A stretch of DNA of 19,505 nt, from the NCBI GenBank assembly GCA_046760225.1, contig JBHIDR010000015.1:1-19505 (forward strand), in the 5' to 3' direction. How positions within the stretch are numbered: the first letter of the stretch is position 1; every line of letters begins with the position of its first letter. The DNA comes from Candidatus Aenigmatarchaeota archaeon (GTDB lineage Archaea; Aenigmatarchaeota; Aenigmatarchaeia; Aenigmatarchaeales; JACQIB01). Below, in pieces: positions 1,352 to 16,194 of this stretch. The notes beneath the pieces were generated by a model. That model was given only the letters and a program-made list of their open reading frames with translations. It searched no databases and was not told the DNA's origin. The position numbers and the translations under genes are program-made.

Positions 1352-1759
1352 TTATCTTATCTTTCTGAGCCTTTCAAATAATTCTTCCATGCTTTCAAAT
1401 TCGATTATCTGGTCGGCTGTCTGGTGTATGAAAGTTGTTCTTATGCCTTTCCTTATGGCCAAGATGAACCTCTTGCCCTTTGCAAGGGCATAGCCGATTT
1501 CCAGCAGCATTCCCTCGCTTCTTTCCTCTGAGTTCACGAAAGCGAGAACAGCGTCTGATTTGTCCAACTCCTCAAACGCGTGTTCCAGTATCTGCTTTTT
1601 TGTAAAATTATTTTTCCTGTAATAATCTTCCTTCCAATATGAGCAGAAATGCTCATGGCCGGCTTTTTCCAAGCTGGAGCAGATTCCCTGTATGTTTTCC
1701 TTTAATTCCTTGTCATCTTCTCCTGTGAACCTGAACGCTATGAATATTTTCATAATCAT
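1352..1759 (-). CDS. Nucleoside 2-deoxyribosyltransferase (NDT)/Rcl-like N-glycosidase family protein
   Basis: KIFIA first strand; LDKSDAVLA; S-E-G-x3-E-I-G-Y-A-x-A-x-G-K motif containing the catalytic Glu. ATGA overlap with the upstream gene. Confidence 0.8.
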   Translation of the reverse strand: MIMKIFIAFRFTGEDDKELKENIQGICSSLEKAGHEHFCSYWKEDYYRKNNFTKKQILEHAFEELDKSDAVLAFVNSEERSEGMLLEIGYALAKGKRFILAIRKGIRTTFIHQTADQIIEFESMEELFERLRKIR

Positions 1760-2610
1760 CCGCCGCCGAATATGTAGCCGCCGCCCGGAGGTATGAGCTT
1801 CTGGATGTCTTCCAGAGGTATTTCCTCTATTAATGGGACGTCTTCTGGCATTGCCTTAATGAGAATCTTTTTCTTGATTTGTTTTGCAAGCTCTGCCTGT
1901 GAAATATCGCCTGGCTTTAATGTGACAAAGTATTCTGCGTTCTTGTTCACTGCCTGCACAGCACCGCATATGGGCTTTGCAATCCTCTTGCCTTCCTTGT
2001 CCTTTTGGAACATGATTCCTATTGCGATCTTTATTTCCATCTTCTTGAGGTAGTTCCTCTTGTGGAACATGAAAGAGCCCTTTGGAAGGTATTCGCCAGC
2101 AGGCGCTTTCTTGCTAACTTCATCATGCTTTGCAAAGAAGGCCCTCATGCTTCCAAGTCCCTGCTTCCATGCACTTGAGTAGGAAATTGCAAACTCTCCG
2201 GCCTCCCTCACAGCAAGGGGTGTTACTGGCTTTCCTTCTGATTTGATTATTGTCAGAGGTGCTCCAGAGATCTCAGCATGAAGAACTATATCACCTTCCT
2301 GCAGGTGCTTCTTGAAGAGCATCTCGTTCTGCGTTGCATCCCTTCCACCAATAACAAGAAAGCCATCGCTTGTGATCATCCAGCGGAACTTCTCGAACCA
2401 CTTGCCCCTTCTCCTCTTCCTCGGTGCTTTCTTCGGTTCTTTCTTCTTCAGGCCCTTCTTCAGTTTCCTTACCTGCCTCCTGGTCTTTTCCAGTGCCTTC
2501 TTTGTTGCCTCTATCTTGCTCTTTGCCCATTTGGCCTCCTCAAAATATTTCTCAGCATTCTCCTGCACTGTCTTCCTGAAATCAATCTCTACTTCTTTCT
2601 TTTTTGCCAT
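1756..2610 (-). CDS. rqcH: Rqc2/RqcH (NEMF, NFACT family) C-terminal half: second coiled-coil helix, NFACT-R and NFACT-C
   Basis: EIDFRKTVQENAEKYFEEAK, KWFEKFRWMITSDGFLVIGGRDATQNE, HAEISGAP, YSSAWK, VSKKAPAGEYLPKGSF and LKPGD are typical of archaeal Rqc2. It has its own RBS (AGGAGATCAAC-ATG). Confidence 0.9.
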   Translation of the reverse strand: MAKKKEVEIDFRKTVQENAEKYFEEAKWAKSKIEATKKALEKTRRQVRKLKKGLKKKEPKKAPRKRRRGKWFEKFRWMITSDGFLVIGGRDATQNEMLFKKHLQEGDIVLHAEISGAPLTIIKSEGKPVTPLAVREAGEFAISYSSAWKQGLGSMRAFFAKHDEVSKKAPAGEYLPKGSFMFHKRNYLKKMEIKIAIGIMFQKDKEGKRIAKPICGAVQAVNKNAEYFVTLKPGDISQAELAKQIKKKILIKAMPEDVPLIEEIPLEDIQKLIPPGGGYIFGGG

Positions 2611-5506: not shown

Positions 5507-6010
5507 ATGGCTAAGAAAAAAGGAAAGAAGAAATATATTGTCCTGCTCATTGCACTTGTCATAATTCTGGCTGTGGCTTATGTTTATTTCTTCATAATAA
5601 GCCCCACATTTGTTGTAAAACCAGTAATAACAAAGACTGCACTTGGGGAAGACATAGGGGCCAGCAATGTGAACTGGATGGTGAACGAGCTCGGTGCATA
5701 CAAGCTGCATTCTGACCCTCTTAGCGGAGAGCCTGCTGTGATGGAAATCGAGATAACAGACACAGGAGAGAAGTTTGCTGTGACAATTGATGGCAATGTG
5801 CCATCAACTGAGGAGAGTGCTGCTGCGAGCCCTGATATCAGGATAAAGGTGGGAAGCGCGGACTTCACAGAGCTCTACAAATCAGAGGACATTGTCACAA
5901 AAGCAGTTGCAATGCAGAAACAAGGCAAGGTGCAGATAGAGCTTCTGAAGGGAATGGTAGAACTTGCAGCAAAAGGGTACAAGGCAATCTATGATGAGCT
6001 ACAGGTTTAG
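5507..6010 (+). CDS. Membrane-anchored protein with a possible SCP2-like (lipid-binding) domain
   Basis: Likely start is ATG 5507 (MAKKKGKKK followed by a TM helix), with TTATAAA about 26 nt upstream. C-terminal pattern FAVTIDG...PDIRIKV...DF...QGKVQIE resembles SCP2 by eye. Confidence 0.6.
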   Translation: MAKKKGKKKYIVLLIALVIILAVAYVYFFIISPTFVVKPVITKTALGEDIGASNVNWMVNELGAYKLHSDPLSGEPAVMEIEITDTGEKFAVTIDGNVPSTEESAAASPDIRIKVGSADFTELYKSEDIVTKAVAMQKQGKVQIELLKGMVELAAKGYKAIYDELQV

Positions 6011-7117
6011 AACAACTATACCTTCCTTTTCCCTTATTTCCTTTATTGCGCTTGCCTCAGGAGTTGTTTCTTTTTCCAGCCTTTCTTTTATTTCTTCCCA
6101 GCTCAGGCCCGAGTCCCTTGCCTTTTTTATTCCTGCAATTATGTTCTCAACCAGGCCATAATTGTTGTAGATGGCTTCTGCTTTTTTCCTGCTCTCCTTC
6201 TCTATCTTTCTCCATTTCTTTATTGCTTGCTTCTGTTCATCCACAATCCTTTCCAGCCTTTTCATTTCTTCTCCCATCTCTTCCTTCTTTTCCAGCTCTA
6301 TGCCAACTGCTTCCCTGTGCGTGAAATATTCATCAAGTGCTGTTGTGAATGAAGCAAAGCTCCTTGCTTCCTTTCCTTTGTAAAGTCTCATCTTTATTGG
6401 AACAATGTCTATTGGCTTTTTGTCCTCGAAGACTATCTGGGGATTGAATTCTTTTACTATAGAGTGTAAAGAAGAGAAAAGTGCCTTTTTCTCTTCTGCT
6501 GTCAGAGTATTGGAGATCTTTGTCTTTTCTATTCCTGCCCTCAAGCACAGCTCTTCTGCATAAAGGCCTGAGAATGACAAGTCAACCGCAAGAAATTTGA
6601 CAATTGGTTTCCTGCTAGAAGATATAAGGGATGCGAATTCCTGCGGACTTAATATAAAGGGGTTTGCAACAGCAGGAGGATAGTTGTACTTCTTTCTTGG
6701 TGTTATCTGCCTGTCCCTCCACAGCTGGACCTCTAGTGGCATTATTATCATGTAGTCCTTTTGGCAGAGGATTACATTGCCCTTTGAGAAGAGCTCGAAG
6801 ATAAGGATGTTGTTTTCTGTCTCCAGTTCAATTATCCTTTCAAAGCCTGGCTGGCGCACATCAGTTATAATCTGGCCAGAAATGTTTTTCCTCAGGTTCA
6901 TTGCAAAGCTTTCTGCCTCTCCTGCCACGCGCTTGTACTCAGAGATAAAGAGCTTTCCAGGAGCAAAATAAAGCTCGAAAGTGCCCTTGCCTGAAAGGAA
7001 GATCTCGAGCCTTATCTCCTTGTCCTTCTGGTAGGCTTTCTGTATTCTTCCTCCTATCAGGTTCTTGAGCTCATTCTTCAGAAACATCAGGTCCAGGCTA
7101 CTCAGTTCTGTTCGCAT
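5999..7117 (-). CDS. rqcH: Rqc2/RqcH (NEMF, NFACT family) N-terminal half: NFACT-N, HhH and first coiled-coil helix
   Basis: LSSLDL...GGRIQKAYQ, FAMNLRKNI, VRQPGFERII, LIFELFSKGNVIL, DRQITP..KY..PP, GLYAEELCLRAGI, SFTTALDEYF, AEAIYNNY. Ends at IKEIREKEGIVVLNL-stop, within the middle domain. Confidence 0.9.
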   Translation of the reverse strand: MRTELSSLDLMFLKNELKNLIGGRIQKAYQKDKEIRLEIFLSGKGTFELYFAPGKLFISEYKRVAGEAESFAMNLRKNISGQIITDVRQPGFERIIELETENNILIFELFSKGNVILCQKDYMIIMPLEVQLWRDRQITPRKKYNYPPAVANPFILSPQEFASLISSSRKPIVKFLAVDLSFSGLYAEELCLRAGIEKTKISNTLTAEEKKALFSSLHSIVKEFNPQIVFEDKKPIDIVPIKMRLYKGKEARSFASFTTALDEYFTHREAVGIELEKKEEMGEEMKRLERIVDEQKQAIKKWRKIEKESRKKAEAIYNNYGLVENIIAGIKKARDSGLSWEEIKERLEKETTPEASAIKEIREKEGIVVLNL

Positions 7118-7121
7118 ATAA

Positions 7122-7721
7122 TCACTTTTTGAATGTCATGAAAAACAGCGGGTCTTTGAATATGTCTTTGACATTGTTGAAAGCCTTTTTGACAACTTCT
7201 TCCTTAACTCTATGCTTTCCAGTAAGAGGATCGAATATCAGGAATTTGCTGTCTTTGAATCCTGCTATCACTATGAAGTGTAATCCTCTTTTACGACCTG
7301 TTAGAACACTTGAGTCAATCAAAGGAATAATAAAATCATTTTCCTTTACCGCTTTCTTCAGATGGTCGAAACTTATCTTCCTAGTGTAAATCTTTATACC
7401 AGTCTTCTTTGCCATTTTCTTGTAAAGGTCTCCCATATACATCATGTTTTTAACGTCTTTTTTGGAATAGCCCTGCTTTTTAGCAAACTTATAATGGGCC
7501 TTTCCACTCTTGTACATTTTCACTTTAATTTTATTTTTTGCAGCTATGTAACCCAGGGCATATGCTGAAGTATACCTATGTGGAAGTATTACTGCTTGGG
7601 TCCAGAACATGAACTCGTCCTCCCTCTTTAGCTTGAATTTCTGAGGATAGTAATGGTTCAGAATCATTAGCAAGCATGAAGGACCGCATGTATTATCCGT
7701 TGTCTGTTTGTACAGTCTCAT
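7122..7721 (-). CDS. Standalone peptidase C39-like (papain-fold) cysteine protease
   Basis: Likely start ATG 7721 after GGAAGGTGA. Q-x5-C (YKQTTDNTCGPSCL), His (GLHFIVIAG) and Asp (LIFDP) complete the triad. No signal peptide. Confidence 0.8.
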   Translation of the reverse strand: MRLYKQTTDNTCGPSCLLMILNHYYPQKFKLKREDEFMFWTQAVILPHRYTSAYALGYIAAKNKIKVKMYKSGKAHYKFAKKQGYSKKDVKNMMYMGDLYKKMAKKTGIKIYTRKISFDHLKKAVKENDFIIPLIDSSVLTGRKRGLHFIVIAGFKDSKFLIFDPLTGKHRVKEEVVKKAFNNVKDIFKDPLFFMTFKK

Positions 7722-8250
7722 TTTCCTTTTCACCTTCCTCTGCCTTTTCCTCTTCAGTGAGTTTTTCAAAGAGCTTCTTTGCTTCTTCAGGGCTCTCAAG
7801 GCCGAAGTACTCTGCAAATTCCTTTGTTGCTATGAGCTTTTTTGTCCTCCCGAACTTCTCTGTCTTTATCAGGCCCTTTGCAACCAGCTGCTTGACATAC
7901 TCGTATGTTCTGTTGCCTATTACCTTTACAATCTCTGACTGGGTAATGGGCTGCTTGTAGGCCACGAGCGCGAGCACGCGCAGCAGGCCCCTGCTGAGAT
8001 CTTGGTAAGGTGTTAGTGGACGTACAGTAGGCGCATAATCAGGCTTGACCCTTATCTGGAAGCCTTCTGCTGTCTCAATGAGCCTTATGCCATGCTCTTC
8101 AGAATCAAGCTCTTTCTTGTATTGATTTATGAGTTCAGCAGCCCTTTCCTCATCAATCCTCAGTATTTTTGAAATCTGTTTGAGTGTAAGGGGCTTGTTG
8201 CTCATGAAAAGCGTTGCTTCAAGCATTGCCCTCTTGTTCCTTCTCTTCAT
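7693..8250 (-). CDS. scpB: Segregation and condensation protein B (SMC kite subunit)
   Basis: LEATLFMSNKPL, GFQIR, LSRGLLRVLALVAYKQPITQSEI, GRT, TKEFAEYFGL; adjacent to scpA. Confidence 0.95.
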   Translation of the reverse strand: MKRRNKRAMLEATLFMSNKPLTLKQISKILRIDEERAAELINQYKKELDSEEHGIRLIETAEGFQIRVKPDYAPTVRPLTPYQDLSRGLLRVLALVAYKQPITQSEIVKVIGNRTYEYVKQLVAKGLIKTEKFGRTKKLIATKEFAEYFGLESPEEAKKLFEKLTEEEKAEEGEKENETVQTDNG

Positions 8251-8944
8251 TTTCCTCCTCCTTCCTGAGTTTCACGTATATCTCTTTGAATAGTTCTGGC
8301 TGCTCATATATAATTTTTCCTTCCTGGGAAAGATGGAGCATTGGTACAAGGGTCTTCACTATGTCTTCCCTTTCCCATCTGCTAAGCAGCTTTGAGAATT
8401 CAACACTGCCTTCTATGTCCTTCATTATGTCCTCTATATGGCTGAGGAGCCTGTCAATCCTCTCAGAGATGTCCTCTTCTGCTGGAGGCACTGCTTCCCT
8501 CACCCTTCTTCTTACCCTTGCTTTCCTCTCAATCCTCCTTTCCTTGACTTCAAATGCCTTTTTCAGTGCTGTCAGCAGTTCTTCAACTGATACAGTGGCA
8601 AGCGGCATTCTCTTAATAGGAGGCTCCAGGGGAGGCACTTTTGCCAGGGCCTGTAGAATAGGGCTGAGTGGTTTTTCAGACTCAGGGAGAAAGAGCTTCC
8701 TTTTCTTTTCAATCAGTATGTCTGACTTCATCCTGAGCAGGATGGCTGCTATGAGTATGAACCTTGCCGGAACCCTGAGGTCTGTGCGCTCCATCCTCGC
8801 CAGGTAATCGGTAAACGCATCAGCCAACCTTATCAGGTCTATTTTCCAGGGATCCATGCCTTCCTCTGCCACTATCTTTACAATCACGTCTTCCCAGCTT
8901 GGCTCATTTACCATCAGTTGTATGAGCTGTTTGTCTGTAAGCAT
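8219..8944 (-). CDS. scpA: Segregation and condensation protein A (kleisin)
   Basis: MDPWKIDL, FILIAAILLRMKS, VSVEELLTAL, and a C-terminal winged helix (LVPMLHL..EGKI..EQPELFKEI). Confidence 0.95.
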   Translation of the reverse strand: MLTDKQLIQLMVNEPSWEDVIVKIVAEEGMDPWKIDLIRLADAFTDYLARMERTDLRVPARFILIAAILLRMKSDILIEKKRKLFLPESEKPLSPILQALAKVPPLEPPIKRMPLATVSVEELLTALKKAFEVKERRIERKARVRRRVREAVPPAEEDISERIDRLLSHIEDIMKDIEGSVEFSKLLSRWEREDIVKTLVPMLHLSQEGKIIYEQPELFKEIYVKLRKEEENEEKEQEGNA

Positions 8945-11791: not shown

Positions 11792-14700
11792 CTACGGCAT
11801 CCTGATGCCAACGAGCTTTGATTCTCCTGCTTCCATTGACACGCCGTACACGCAGTCAGCAGCCTGGATTGTGGTGTCGTTGTGGGTGATTACCACGAAC
11901 TGGGCCATCTCTGAGTGCTTTCTGAGGAAGTCTGTTATCTTTAATGTATTCACCTTGTCAAGTGCTGCGTCTATCTCGTCCAGCACATAGAAGGGAGCTG
12001 GCCTGAATTTCTGGATTGCAAAAAGGAAAGCAAGTGCTGTTAGTGTTTTTTCACCGCCTGACATTGCATCAATGTTCAGTACCTTCCTTCCTGGCGGGCT
12101 TGCCTCGATTATGAGGCCTGAGTCTTCTAAGACTTCACCTTCTAATCTGAGGCTTCCTTCGCCCCCGACAAGGTCATGGAAAATCAGCTTGAACTGCTCG
12201 GAAACAGCGTTCATTGTCTCAAGGAATGTTTCCTTTCTCCTTCCCTCTATCTCAGCAATGACCTGGAGCACCTTGTCCCTTTCACTTGTGAGCTTGTCCA
12301 CCTTGTCCTTGAGATCATCATAGACCTTTTTCAGCTGCTTGTGCTCCTCAACTGCCTTCTGGTTAATCGGCCCAAGTGAGTTTATCTTTGTGAGAGCGTC
12401 CCTTATCTTTGCCTGGAGCGTGCTGACAGCAAGGTCGTAAAGCTCTTCTTCCTTGAACTTCCTTGTCTCGCCGAACTCCTGTTTGAGGTTCTCGAGCTGT
12501 GCCTCCAGCCTTGCACGGTTTATCTTCAGCCTGTTCAGCTCCTCGTGTGCAGTAAGCTTTTTCTCATTCAATGACCTCCTCCTTTCCCTGAGGTCGCGCA
12601 GCTGCTGCTCTGTCTTCTGCTTCTTCTCTTCTGCTTTCCTTATCTCTTCTGAGCCTGCCTTTTCCTTGCTTAACATCCTTTCTAGTTCCTTCTTCAGCTT
12701 GTCTGTTTCCTCAGCCAGTACCCGGTTGTCCTCCTCTATTGCCTTTATGTTCTGCTCATACCTCCTTATCTCGCCTGTCTGCGTGAACACTGGTTTCTCC
12801 TTCCTGAAGAAGCCCCCTATCACAGCGCCTCCCCTTTCAACTAGGTCACCATCAAGAGTGACCATCCTGAGTTTTCCGAACCCTATCCTCTTTGCAGTGT
12901 CAATGTTGTTGACAACAAGCGTGTCTCCGAAAACATGGGAGAATGCGTGCCAGTACTTCTTGTCAAAATCTACCAGGTTTATTGCAAAATCAACTGCGCC
13001 CTTCTCCTTCAGGTATTTCTTCAGCCTGCTGTTGTCCCTTTCCCTTATCCTGTCAAGGGGGAGGAATGTGGCCCTGCCAATCTTGTTCTTCTTCAGGTGC
13101 TTGATGCATTCAACTGCTGTTGAGGAATCAGAAACAACCAGGTCCTGCATGTGGTGCCCTGCTGCAACAGCAATCGCGGTGCTGTACTTTGACGGCACCT
13201 TTGACAGTGAGCCCACTGTCCCAAAGACATCAGGATGTTTCAGCTTTAATACCTCCTGCACTGCCCTGCTCATTGCCAGCTGCCTTTGCTTTTCCTCGAC
13301 TGCGCGCAGCTTCTGTATCATGTCCCTGTACCTTTCAATGGACATGCGGTTGCCCTCTATCTTGTTCTCCCTGTTGTATATCTGGGCACGCAGCTGCTCA
13401 ACCTTCTTTATTATTTCAACGTCCTTTGTCCTGTCAAAGAGCCTCTGCCTTATCCTCTCTATGCTCTTCTCGTCCTTGTCCAGCTGAGACTCTATTTTTT
13501 CCACCTGAGTGCTGAACTTGCCGAAGTCCTCATCCTTCTTCCTTATCTTGTTGTCCAGCTTCTGCATCGCTTTCTCAGCTTCGTTCAGCTTCCTGGTTGC
13601 AAGCGATGCCCTCAGCTTGTCAAGGTCATTCGCATACTTGCTGTATTCCTCAGCAGCTATCCTTTCAACTTCCAGCTTTTTCAGCTGGGTCTCCTTTTCA
13701 TTCAGGATTATTGATGATTCCTTGAGCCTTTCCTCCACTGTGAGCAGTTCTCTCTGGGCCTTGTGCCTCTTTTCCTCGAACTCAGATATGCCAGAAATCT
13801 CATCTATTATCTCCCTCCTCTCTATCGGGCCCATCTCTATCACTTCTGTGACATCTCCCTGGAGAATTATGTTGTGGCCATCAGGCCTTATATTACCGGC
13901 ACGCAATACTTCCAGTATCTTTTCCCTTGTCACAGTCTTTCCGTTCAGCTTGTATATTGAGACCCCTCTTCTGTTCACTTTCCTTGACACTGATATTACA
14001 TCCTCTTCAATCGGAAATACCCTGTCCTTGTTGCTGAAATATATCTTTACCTTTGCGAATTCAGCAGGCTTCTTGCCCTTGCCTCCGTTGAATATCATAC
14101 CTAGCATCTTCTTTGCCCTCAGGCTCTTTGCAGATGTCCTTCCGAGCACAAAGCATATTGCATCGAGGATGTTGCTATTGTGTACGAAAATACCATTGCC
14201 TATAAAATTATGGCAATTTGGTATTGTTAGGTCGTATACCCATTTCTCACCTTTAACTTTCTCTATCTTTTCTATCTTATCCCAGAAAATATCAGAATTC
14301 GCCAAAAGTTGTAAAGTCTTCATTATCTTCTTGGACTCTGAGAGCTTTTCTTCTATTTGAGATTTTACAAACTTGAACAGTTTTTCAAGATTTTCTGGCT
14401 TAGGACCATATTTGCCGTGTGCCCAATTAGAGTTGATGGTATCAGGATGTAGACCAATTGCAATACTAGCATCAGACCTTTTGATTTTTAGCTTGCGCAT
14501 AAATTTTAGTAAAAGTTTTTTGTCCTTCTTAAGGTTCTTCTTTAAACTTTTAATATCCTCGATATGCGCTCTAAATATCGAAAATGCTTCCTCAATACCT
14601 TCTCGCGTAGGACAGCATCGATTTTCATTATAAGCAGCAAACCTTGGGTACTTCTTTCTTAAAGATTTGTATTCGATACCCAATAGATGTCTACATTCCT

Positions 14701-15907
14701 TTATCAAGATATTTACATCTTGTGGCAGAACATCTAAATTAGGATTAGTGATGATATTTTTATTTGCCCACATTCTCAATCGTTTCTTTTTATGTTCACA
14801 TCTCAAGGGAATAGCTTCATAGAAGGCTTTTAATTTCTCTTTACCTTCGATGACAATATGATAATATTTTCTTCTGGTTTTGTTCTTCGTATTTGTTGCA
14901 TATTTCATTTTTGCCTTTTTTCTTGCAACTATGCCAAATCTTAAGAGAGACAACTGTACCTGGTCTGCCAATTTTGGGCTATTTGTTACGTATTCAAGGG
15001 TAGGGTTGTCCTTCCTTATGGATGCATCACAATCAAACAACGCAGCCAGGAAGTTTGCCAAGATATATTTTTGTGAAAATAATATCTCTTTCGGTATGTG
15101 TTTATTCTTGCCTTTGTACCTTTGATTGAAAAGCGTTGCTAATGACTTCACCAACATCCTTGAATTAAGGCACACCAACGTTGCCTTTCCTCTATAGTCA
15201 TAATTGTGCAATATTGGCTTATAACCCAAATTTTTGGATATGAAAACAAAATCCCTAATCAATTCCTTATCGGCGTTGACAAAGTCGCATCTTCTGCAGT
15301 TTCCTTGAACCTTGATATGTCCGTCACTTACCATATAACCTAGGAATCTTGCAAACTCCGGACTTAGAGTCCAAGGTATACCTGATATTTCCAGTCTGAA
15401 TTTTCTTTCAGGCAAGTCTAGTTTGTTGGGTGTTGCAATAAGTTCCCCTTTCTTAAGGGCATTGACAACTTCTGATCGAACCTCCCCGTTTTTATAAATC
15501 ATAACCGGGTGACAACCAGTCGTTGTGACACGCTTTCCGGTCCTCGTTTTTATCTCATATAAGTAGGGCTCGCCTTTCCTTTTGATGAAGGCAGATATAT
15601 TCTTTTCGACTACTTTCATAGAATTCGGATCGAGCCCCCATGTCTTAAGGCCTTCTGGATTCTCGAGCGTATATACACCGTCATCCATTTTTAACTTATT
15701 TTTGCATTGATTAAGAGTAGTATCTACTATTTCGCCCAATGGCCTGATTGTGCCATCACTTAATATCACTTCAGTATCCCATTTTGCACTCTTCCCGCTG
15801 CCGTTCGGGCCACATACGATTGAGAAGTCGCTCGGGAAGAGTATCGCTGTCTTCTTTGCAAAGGACTTGAACCCCTGCATCTCGAGCTTCTCTATCCTTG
15901 TTTTCAT
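11792..15907 (-). CDS. smc: Chromosome segregation protein Smc (intein-containing precursor, 1371 aa; 833 aa after splicing)
   Basis: GFKSF; Walker A GPNGSGK/SNILDAI interrupted by an intein; Q-loop ILQG; hinge GRATFLPL and GX6GX3GG (GDLVERGGAVIGG); LGPIN; signature MSGGEK; Walker B/D-loop YVLDEIDAALD; H-loop VITH. Confidence 0.97.
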   Translation of the reverse strand: MKTRIEKLEMQGFKSFAKKTAILFPSDFSIVCGPNGSGKSAKWDTEVILSDGTIRPLGEIVDTTLNQCKNKLKMDDGVYTLENPEGLKTWGLDPNSMKVVEKNISAFIKRKGEPYLYEIKTRTGKRVTTTGCHPVMIYKNGEVRSEVVNALKKGELIATPNKLDLPERKFRLEISGIPWTLSPEFARFLGYMVSDGHIKVQGNCRRCDFVNADKELIRDFVFISKNLGYKPILHNYDYRGKATLVCLNSRMLVKSLATLFNQRYKGKNKHIPKEILFSQKYILANFLAALFDCDASIRKDNPTLEYVTNSPKLADQVQLSLLRFGIVARKKAKMKYATNTKNKTRRKYYHIVIEGKEKLKAFYEAIPLRCEHKKKRLRMWANKNIITNPNLDVLPQDVNILIKECRHLLGIEYKSLRKKYPRFAAYNENRCCPTREGIEEAFSIFRAHIEDIKSLKKNLKKDKKLLLKFMRKLKIKRSDASIAIGLHPDTINSNWAHGKYGPKPENLEKLFKFVKSQIEEKLSESKKIMKTLQLLANSDIFWDKIEKIEKVKGEKWVYDLTIPNCHNFIGNGIFVHNSNILDAICFVLGRTSAKSLRAKKMLGMIFNGGKGKKPAEFAKVKIYFSNKDRVFPIEEDVISVSRKVNRRGVSIYKLNGKTVTREKILEVLRAGNIRPDGHNIILQGDVTEVIEMGPIERREIIDEISGISEFEEKRHKAQRELLTVEERLKESSIILNEKETQLKKLEVERIAAEEYSKYANDLDKLRASLATRKLNEAEKAMQKLDNKIRKKDEDFGKFSTQVEKIESQLDKDEKSIERIRQRLFDRTKDVEIIKKVEQLRAQIYNRENKIEGNRMSIERYRDMIQKLRAVEEKQRQLAMSRAVQEVLKLKHPDVFGTVGSLSKVPSKYSTAIAVAAGHHMQDLVVSDSSTAVECIKHLKKNKIGRATFLPLDRIRERDNSRLKKYLKEKGAVDFAINLVDFDKKYWHAFSHVFGDTLVVNNIDTAKRIGFGKLRMVTLDGDLVERGGAVIGGFFRKEKPVFTQTGEIRRYEQNIKAIEEDNRVLAEETDKLKKELERMLSKEKAGSEEIRKAEEKKQKTEQQLRDLRERRRSLNEKKLTAHEELNRLKINRARLEAQLENLKQEFGETRKFKEEELYDLAVSTLQAKIRDALTKINSLGPINQKAVEEHKQLKKVYDDLKDKVDKLTSERDKVLQVIAEIEGRRKETFLETMNAVSEQFKLIFHDLVGGEGSLRLEGEVLEDSGLIIEASPPGRKVLNIDAMSGGEKTLTALAFLFAIQKFRPAPFYVLDEIDAALDKVNTLKITDFLRKHSEMAQFVVITHNDTTIQAADCVYGVSMEAGESKLVGIRMP
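14177..15790 (-). mobile_element. Intein (538 aa, precursor residues 40-577) with LAGLIDADG homing endonuclease domain
   Basis: Block A SAKWDTEVILSDG; block B VTTTGCHPV (TxxH); LAGLIDADG-like FLGYMVSDG and FLAALFDCDAS; blocks F/G WVYDLTIPNCHNFIGNGIFVHN with +1 Ser. Excision restores GPNGSGKSNILDAI. Confidence 0.95.
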
Positions 15908-16194
15908 CTCTTTCTCCTCCCTTTCTTTGCATTTTCTATTTTATTAAACATGTCAGTGAGTGCAGCACATATGTTGTTTTTGCTGTTCAGCTTGCACAGC
16001 TTCATGTTCCCCCTCTTATAAACATCTATTACCTTTTCCTTTTCAAGGATCGAGACTGTTTTGGATACCATTGACTTGTCCATGTGCAGTTCCCTGGCTA
16101 GCTCAGCTATGCTGAAGTCCCTGTCAGGGTTTTTGCACAGGTGCTTGAGCATCACTATCCTTGTCTTTGAGCCTATCAGTTTCTCTACTTTCAT
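15904..16194 (-). CDS. Small winged helix-turn-helix DNA-binding protein
   Basis: LIGSKTRIVML...FSIAELARELHMDKSMVSKTVSILEKEKVI...GNMKLCKLN; ATGA overlap with the smc start. Confidence 0.85.
   Translation of the reverse strand: MKVEKLIGSKTRIVMLKHLCKNPDRDFSIAELARELHMDKSMVSKTVSILEKEKVIDVYKRGNMKLCKLNSKNNICAALTDMFNKIENAKKGRRKR

Follow-up and report, generated by a model that had tools for sequence, protein, structure and literature searches.

A short-armed Smc, its size hidden by an intein, in an archaeon of the phylum Aenigmatarchaeota

Canonical Smc-ScpAB, as represented by the families TIGR02169 and TIGR02168, by the Pyrococcus structures 5XEI, 5XNS, 4I99 and 4RSJ, and by Smc of Bacillus subtilis, has a split ABC head with its characteristic motifs, a joint and a hinge, and the genes for ScpA and ScpB are found nearby. 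All these features are shared by the protein described here, the product of the smc gene on contig JBHIDR010000015.1 of a DPANN archaeon from the phylum Aenigmatarchaeota. It differs from the canonical proteins in that its arm strands are ~165–170 amino acids (aa) shorter and lack the hinge-proximal half, and in that its score against TIGR02169 is slightly below the cut-off. It is an intact, canonical Smc that belongs to a known, little-noticed class with short arms, and an intein hides its size. The stretch analysed, called the window below, is the whole contig (19,505 bp), one of the 83 contigs of a fragmented, 83% complete metagenome-assembled genome of 851 kb.

The arm lengths of 3,337 prokaryotic Smc proteins were estimated by Bürmann et al. 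(2017; PMC5344682), with natural modes at 163 aa (a 'possible minor mode'), 238 aa and 341 aa. For the arms of B. subtilis Smc the same article gives a functional period of 91 aa, along with a quoted superhelical estimate of 99 aa, and functional arm windows of 253–267 and 321–373 aa. The four shortest proteins in its table have mean arms of 193, 173, 160 and 159 aa, all below 200 aa. The 173-aa entry (GI 339756830; HeadN_start 574, HeadC_end 1372), compared by its tabulated boundaries, resembles our query in combining a ~540-aa insertion in the N-terminal head with short arms. In the parts of the article consulted these short entries are assigned to no lineage and not discussed further, whereas here the short build is the rule for a whole phylum. 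The length class is already visible in the supplementary table from 2017, and its assignment to a lineage is what the present analysis adds. In the literature searched, no paper assigning a short Smc class to Aenigmatarchaeota was found (papers outside it may do so), nor any relevant prior work on DPANN Smc arm length or on Smc inteins.

The intein-bearing precursor

The smc gene is composed of the following parts (window coordinates, strand, residues of the precursor, and spliced numbering in brackets):

11792..15907 (-): smc precursor open reading frame (ORF), 1371 aa and stop, with Pfam and NCBIfam matches
15791..15907 (-): N-extein, residues 1–39, first head strand and Walker A up to GPNGSGK; aligns to residues 1–39 of homologue P0003
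14177..15790 (-): intein, residues 40–577 (538 aa), located in the Walker A loop and containing a LAGLIDADG homing-endonuclease domain; PF14890, PF14528, TIGR01445, TIGR01443
13784..14176 (-): remaining N-terminal head half, residues 578–708 (spliced 40–170)
13247..13783 (-): N-terminal arm strand, residues 709–887 (spliced 171–349), 179 aa; from the profile landmarks
12809..13246 (-): hinge dimerisation domain, residues 888–1033 (spliced 350–495); from Pfam, the landmarks and Foldseek
12383..12808 (-): C-terminal arm strand, residues 1034–1175 (spliced 496–637), 142 aa; from the profile landmarks
11795..12382 (-): C-terminal head half, residues 1176–1371, with the SGGEK signature motif, Walker B and H-loop

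The frame is free of stop codons through all 1371 codons. In Pfam, SMC_N (PF02463; 213.6 bits) is split across both head halves, and SMC_hinge (PF06470) matches residues 892–1008 with 110.4 bits (cut-off 22.5). The NCBIfam model SMC_prok_B (TIGR02168) scores 583.6 bits, above its cut-off of 567.35. The intein is recognised by Intein_splicing (PF14890; residues 47–577, 99.5 bits), by LAGLIDADG_3 (PF14528; 78.4 bits), and by TIGR01445 and TIGR01443. Judged by its sequence it has the splicing blocks, the nucleophiles at positions 1 and +1, the C-terminal His-Asn and an internal endonuclease domain; it starts with Ser40, directly past GPNGSGK, and ends with His-Asn577, followed by Ser578 as the +1 nucleophile.

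Excision of residues 40–577 leaves 833 aa (1371 − 538). Residues 578–1371 align to positions 40–833 of the intein-free 833-aa homologue P0003 with 73% identity and no gaps, and with the N-extein aligned to the first 39 residues of P0003, exact collinearity is restored. The head motifs are all present (Walker A GPNGSGKS, split by the intein, QGD, SGGEK, Walker B LDEIDAALD and the H-loop HN), and they are invariant across 71 aligned sequences. In spliced numbering, ISEF is found at 169, SRAV at 342 and LGPIN at 640.

The distribution of the Walker A intein is sporadic: 14 of the 148 short-arm and 12 of the 91 full-length Smc relatives have an insertion at this position that exceeds 100 aa, and the closest relatives, P0003 and P0004 (73–74% identity), are free of the intein. 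In a few relatives (P0129, P0234) the N-terminal end holds insertions of only ~160–190 aa. On the opposite strand inside smc, at 12072–15125 (+), there are a number of long ORFs, the longest with 344 aa, which are taken to be antisense shadows of purine-rich coiled-coil codons.

Length of the arms and position of the loss

The arm strands were delimited by three profiles derived from the short-arm family (spliced numbering: head N 41–170, hinge 350–495, head C 638–833), which were applied to 270 proteins and were all three found in 261 of them. The strands of the query measure 179 aa (N) and 142 aa (C), with a mean of 160.5 aa, far from the ~340-aa strands and ~47–50 nm of a standard Smc. In the short class (n=148) the N strand has 175.9 ± 3.6 aa and the C strand 138.3 ± 3.1 aa, compared with 344.7 and 303.1 aa in the full-length class (n=91). 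The offset between the N and C strands that is caused by the landmarks is equal in both classes (38 and 42 aa), and the N strand has therefore lost 168.8 aa and the C strand 164.9 aa. A further 3 proteins have arms that average close to 222 aa, and in another 19 the arms are between 250 and 305 aa, mostly 287–305 aa.

The classes observed here (157, 222 and 324 aa) are 6–17 aa under the modes of Bürmann et al. (163, 238 and 341 aa). When the boundaries are instead modelled on the Pyrococcus head constructs (spliced ~182 and ~661, our own estimate), ~150 aa of the N strand and ~152 aa of the C strand remain on the head-proximal side, and the strands average ~167 aa each. By either mean, 160.5 or ~167 aa, the query falls in the short natural class, with strands of ~160–190 aa and similar lengths; the domain boundaries of that survey differ from our landmarks by 10–50 aa, so the match is good to about ±15 aa.

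The position of the loss was read from profile–profile alignments. Using hhalign, residues 1–160 of the short N strand align with 1–162 of the full-length N strand (score 174, runner-up alignment 58), and residues 14–142 of the short C strand with 183–311 of the full-length C strand (score 99.5, runner-up 48). Profile slices of 50–60 residues map collinearly to the same places as the whole strands. The hinge-adjacent ends of the full-length arms are matched only by the last ~19 residues of the N strand and the first ~13 of the C strand. The slices and the whole-strand alignments together thus show, at the level of profile comparison, that the hinge-proximal half of the arm, ~165–170 residues per strand, is absent on both strands. 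The two losses are in register, within an alignment uncertainty of roughly ±15 aa. A placement of the deletion by MAFFT E-INS-i alone, with gaps at spliced ~323–338 and ~504–542, was set aside; coiled-coil columns are unreliable in a multiple alignment, and the profile–profile results were therefore relied on.

Since the losses are in register, the hinge sits on an arm stub, much like in the engineered B. subtilis Mini-Smc, where the hinge, with a short coiled-coil stub, is placed on a truncated head-proximal arm. The two differ in length, as the engineered proteins are functional only down to 253 aa, and the natural protein is conserved at ~160–175 aa.

The C-extein was modelled with AlphaFold2 from the 71 aligned sequences; the model has a mean predicted local distance difference test score of 82.5 and shows long helices of paired length flanking the hinge (spliced 169–282 and 293–340; beyond the hinge 506–540, 554–608, 623–639 and 647–709). 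In this model the loop at spliced 609–622 is the joint. The best structural matches from Foldseek include the head of Pyrococcus yayanosii Smc with coiled coil and joint (5xei, template modelling (TM) score 0.68; 5xns, 0.72), and for the hinge 5h69 and 3nwc (both 0.75), with all TM-scores normalised by target length. Scaled from 47 nm per 344 aa (PMC5344682), the arm would be ~23–25 nm long, compared with the standard ~47–50 nm.

These measurements agree with most of what an earlier note, made from the sequence alone, had claimed. Its arithmetic and coordinates for an 833-aa spliced product with all head motifs and a canonical hinge are correct, as the gapless alignment with P0003 confirms, and the 1371-aa ORF, in which the intein was said to mask the size of Smc, is indeed an 833-aa Smc with a 538-aa intein. 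Its count of ~170 aa from ISEF to SRAV compares with 173 aa measured. The ~135 aa given from the hinge to LGPIN are slightly low, as 142 aa are obtained from the hinge boundary at residue 495. Its shortening of ~160–175 aa per strand is reproduced against the 91 full-length relatives with the same landmarks. The asymmetric or out-of-register deletions that it named as a refutation are not what the profile alignments point to, with both losses symmetric and in register; matching losses that reflect neither decay nor an assembly error, as it had argued, also accord with the recurrence of the length throughout the phylum.

Distribution and genomic context

The short-arm build is the norm for the whole phylum Aenigmatarchaeota. 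The best 120 homologues of the C-extein (50–100% identity, the top one being the protein from the window itself) are all 797–857 aa long, or 1299–1389 aa with an intein, and their source names are mostly Aenigmatarchaeota. A search for the hinge in 301 Aenigmatarchaeota genomes gave matches in 283, including all 98 high-quality ones. Frame lengths were taken from 150 listed hinge matches, with 136 further matches beyond these. Among the 150, 119 frames have 790–890 aa and 14 have 1300–1400 aa; another 14 are shorter than 790 aa (several on very short contigs), and 3 have 924, 998 and 1022 aa. No frame of 1100–1250 aa is present among these 150 matches from the phylum. The recurrence across the phylum rules out misassembly. 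In the 71 aligned members, identity to the query averages 42% in the N arm and 32% in the C arm, and the standard deviation (SD) of the lengths is only 3.3 and 2.7 aa, respectively. The arms thus keep a fixed length throughout the phylum even as their sequence diverges, and this implies a constraint on the length itself.

For the wider distribution, named GTDB contigs were scanned, and of 77 loci kept, 52 were measurable. The short-class loci labelled Aenigmatarchaeota or 'uncultured archaeon' have mean arms of 142–160 aa. Arms of 311–325 aa are found in loci labelled Micrarchaeota (4), Iainarchaeum (1), Nanoarchaeota (1) and Methanosarcinales, and in nine of ten Woesearchaeota loci, the tenth having a mean arm of 204.5 aa. 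Short arms are not a general property of small DPANN genomes. Naiadarchaeales is given as the source of one short protein, and Heimdallarchaeota as that of one cluster member. Short-arm Smc (153–165.5 aa) is also found on three contigs with bacterial labels, two Bipolaricaulota and one 'uncultured Thermotogae' (L021, L049 and L063). These proteins fall on the archaeal side of the split between bacteria and archaea with 100% support. An independent shortening in bacteria is disfavoured by this grouping with archaeal Smc, which suggests transfer or mis-binning.

In a tree of the head and hinge columns, 41 of the 43 short proteins group together with 100% support. The other two, one of them named Naiadarchaeales, were placed outside the main short clade in this first quick tree. 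Placing all 43 in one clade is not rejected by the approximately unbiased (AU) test (p 0.64), and the constrained tree is 13 log-likelihood units better. A convergent origin of the short class is therefore not claimed, and the 43 short proteins sampled may all go back to one origin.

A separate set of twenty loci with frames of 950–1137 aa is matched by both Smc head halves and unmatched by the hinge profile (L035, L037, L041, L045, L051, L052, L054, L056, L065–L069, L074, L077, L080, L083 and L085–L087). Their labels include Iainarchaeum, Treponema/Spirochaetota, some Woesearchaeota and Omnitrophota, and their hinge is absent or very divergent. They are alike to our query in having a shortened SMC in place of a normal smc, but they are without a recognisable hinge, whereas the query keeps a canonical one.

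The genome contains a single hinge domain, in an assembly that is 83% complete. Apart from smc, SMC_N matches only a Rad50/arcadin-4-like ORF (contig C13) and the ABC protein RLI (contig C76). The former (C13:3879-6251; L007:25-2397) is a 790-aa Rad50-like ORF, for which the Rad50 models and arcadin-4 score about equally; Rkd4 (arcadin-4) reaches 151 bits over nearly the full length, and all models stay far under their cut-offs. Smc and ScpA are a textbook binding pair. The genes for ScpA and ScpB are located in the window on the same strand as smc, ~3 kb downstream:

8219..8944 (-): scpA (kleisin), 241 aa; PF02616 54.3 bits, cut-off 24.6
7693..8250 (-): scpB (kite subunit), 185 aa, overlapping the end of scpA; PF04079 135.5 bits, cut-off 27.4

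A 96-aa winged-helix ORF (MarR/HVO_A0114-like; 15904-16194 (-)) overlaps the smc start codon by 4 nucleotides. It was rejected as a conserved partner of Smc, as its linkage to smc recurs in only one genome of the same genus (G109); its other matches in the class are generic ~200-aa paralogues away from smc. Elsewhere in the window, an NFACT_N ORF (5999-7117 (-)) and an NFACT-R ORF (1756-2610 (-)) are ~3.4 kb apart with unrelated genes between them; NFACT, a protein of ribosome quality control, seems to be encoded here in two pieces.

Explanations for the short arms and their meaning

Taken together, the sequence comparisons make it very probable that the gene encodes a functional Smc with half-length arms under length constraint. 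Several observations weigh against this reading. The protein scores 706.9 bits with SMC_prok_A (TIGR02169), slightly below the cut-off of 729.4; TIGR02169 is the archaeal Smc equivalog, and the deficit is expected because half of the arm is missing. The genome in which no second smc gene was found with the hinge and SMC_N profiles is 83% complete. The pairing of the strands was derived from their lengths and the profile alignments. The AlphaFold2 model has two facing low-confidence breaks, at spliced ~283–292 and ~541–553 (window ~13420–13450 and ~12640–12680, (-)). Gly547, within the second break, beyond the joint, is conserved in 63% of the family, and the facing breaks may represent a hinge-like discontinuity in the short arm. 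A further objection comes from the B. subtilis screen (PMC5344682), where the shortest functional engineered arm has 253 aa and the six constructs looked up at 167, 169, 171, 173, 175 and 177 aa have zero colony area, so that a length in this range is not generically permissive.

What sets the length is less certain. It is plausible that the constraint is the ~91-aa superhelical phase rule of Bürmann et al., and a tuning of the arm to a whole number of periods is proposed here only tentatively. When the functional windows are extrapolated one period down, which is our own step, a window of ~162–176 aa is obtained, and the short class would be inside it on their scale. The same window is empty in B. 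subtilis among the constructs looked up. The mean loss of 167 aa corresponds to 1.83 periods of 91 aa and 1.7 of 99 aa, which again speaks against exact tuning, and on the landmark scale the arms of the longer relatives cover ~287 to 340 aa without a break; quantisation is therefore not strict. The earlier note had described the loss as close to two periods, and this stands as an approximation only, given the value of 1.83, the continuous spread of the long arms and the dead B. subtilis constructs at 167–177 aa.

The strongest alternative is a reduction specific to the lineage, fixed a single time and passed on since, in which only a continuous paired coil is needed, with no tuning to a period, and the two-period match is coincidental. 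The fractional loss of 1.83 periods and the continuous range of the long-armed relatives (~287–340 aa) fit it, as does the lack of a functional window at 167–177 aa in the B. subtilis data consulted, and with a single origin of the 43 short proteins not rejected by the AU test (p 0.64) the narrow length could partly reflect shared descent. We consider it rather unlikely all the same, as the SD of arm length stays at ~3 aa even though arm identity drops to 14–21% in the most distant members, the three length classes lie 6–17 aa under the published modes, and the extrapolated window of ~162–176 aa would contain the class.

It is less probable still that the short arms are a by-product of genome or cell-size reduction in DPANN, with a small chromosome needing a smaller ring. 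The host assembly is indeed small (0.85 Mb), like the sampled genomes of the phylum (~0.3–1.9 Mb, mostly 0.5–1.2 Mb). However, the 4 Micrarchaeota, the Iainarchaeum, the Nanoarchaeota and nine of the ten Woesearchaeota loci, with arms of 311–325 aa (204.5 aa in the tenth), point to no correlation between arm length and genome size across DPANN.

That the ORF is an SMC-like paralogue (Rad50, an archaea-specific SMC-related protein or SMC5/6-like), or a decaying or mis-assembled gene, can be dismissed as highly improbable: the TIGR02169 score slightly below cut-off, the oversized look of the ORF and the fragmented 83-contig assembly would fit, but the hinge is canonical (110 bits), TIGR02168 exceeds its cut-off, no stop interrupts the 1371 codons, Pyrococcus Smc gives the best structural matches, scpA and scpB are encoded close by, the 120 best homologues all have the same short build, and the Rad50-like gene is a separate ORF on C13.

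On the functional, length-constrained Smc with half-length arms, the earlier note's remaining expectations fared as follows. A second full-length smc as the true partner of ScpAB, which would have undermined its claim, was not found in the 83% complete genome, and scpA and scpB are in the window. Plotting Smc length across relatives, as it had advised, gives the short build throughout the phylum and long arms in most of the other DPANN loci measured. Its caution that novelty would fall if the length class were already catalogued was justified, as the survey of 2017 contains both the minor mode at 163 aa and the four Smc below 200 aa.

The following course of events is proposed for this protein. 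The single canonical Smc of this DPANN archaeon would be made as an intein-bearing precursor, and splicing would yield an Smc of 833 aa in which the ATPase heads and the hinge are normal and the head-proximal coiled coil has its joint. The protein would then dimerise at the hinge and bind the ScpA and ScpB encoded ~3 kb downstream, probably forming an ordinary Smc-ScpAB ring that entraps DNA or extrudes loops, with a smaller lumen and reach.

The arm requirement of the SMC motor, and the discrete classes of arm length, pose a mechanistic question. A phylum whose only Smc is half-armed, with a normal hinge and ScpAB, is a natural control for the engineered Mini-Smc, and its natural length coincides with the range where every B. 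subtilis construct looked up failed. Aenigmatarchaeota and a few other lineages may, as a tentative proposal, run a functional Smc-ScpAB motor on a ~25-nm arm, in which the superhelical phase from head to hinge is preserved by the loss of exactly the hinge-proximal half of both strands, and which would be the natural occupant of the window two steps below the standard. If this is true, they would offer a ready-made system to test whether the step size of loop extrusion and the capture of DNA scale with arm length.

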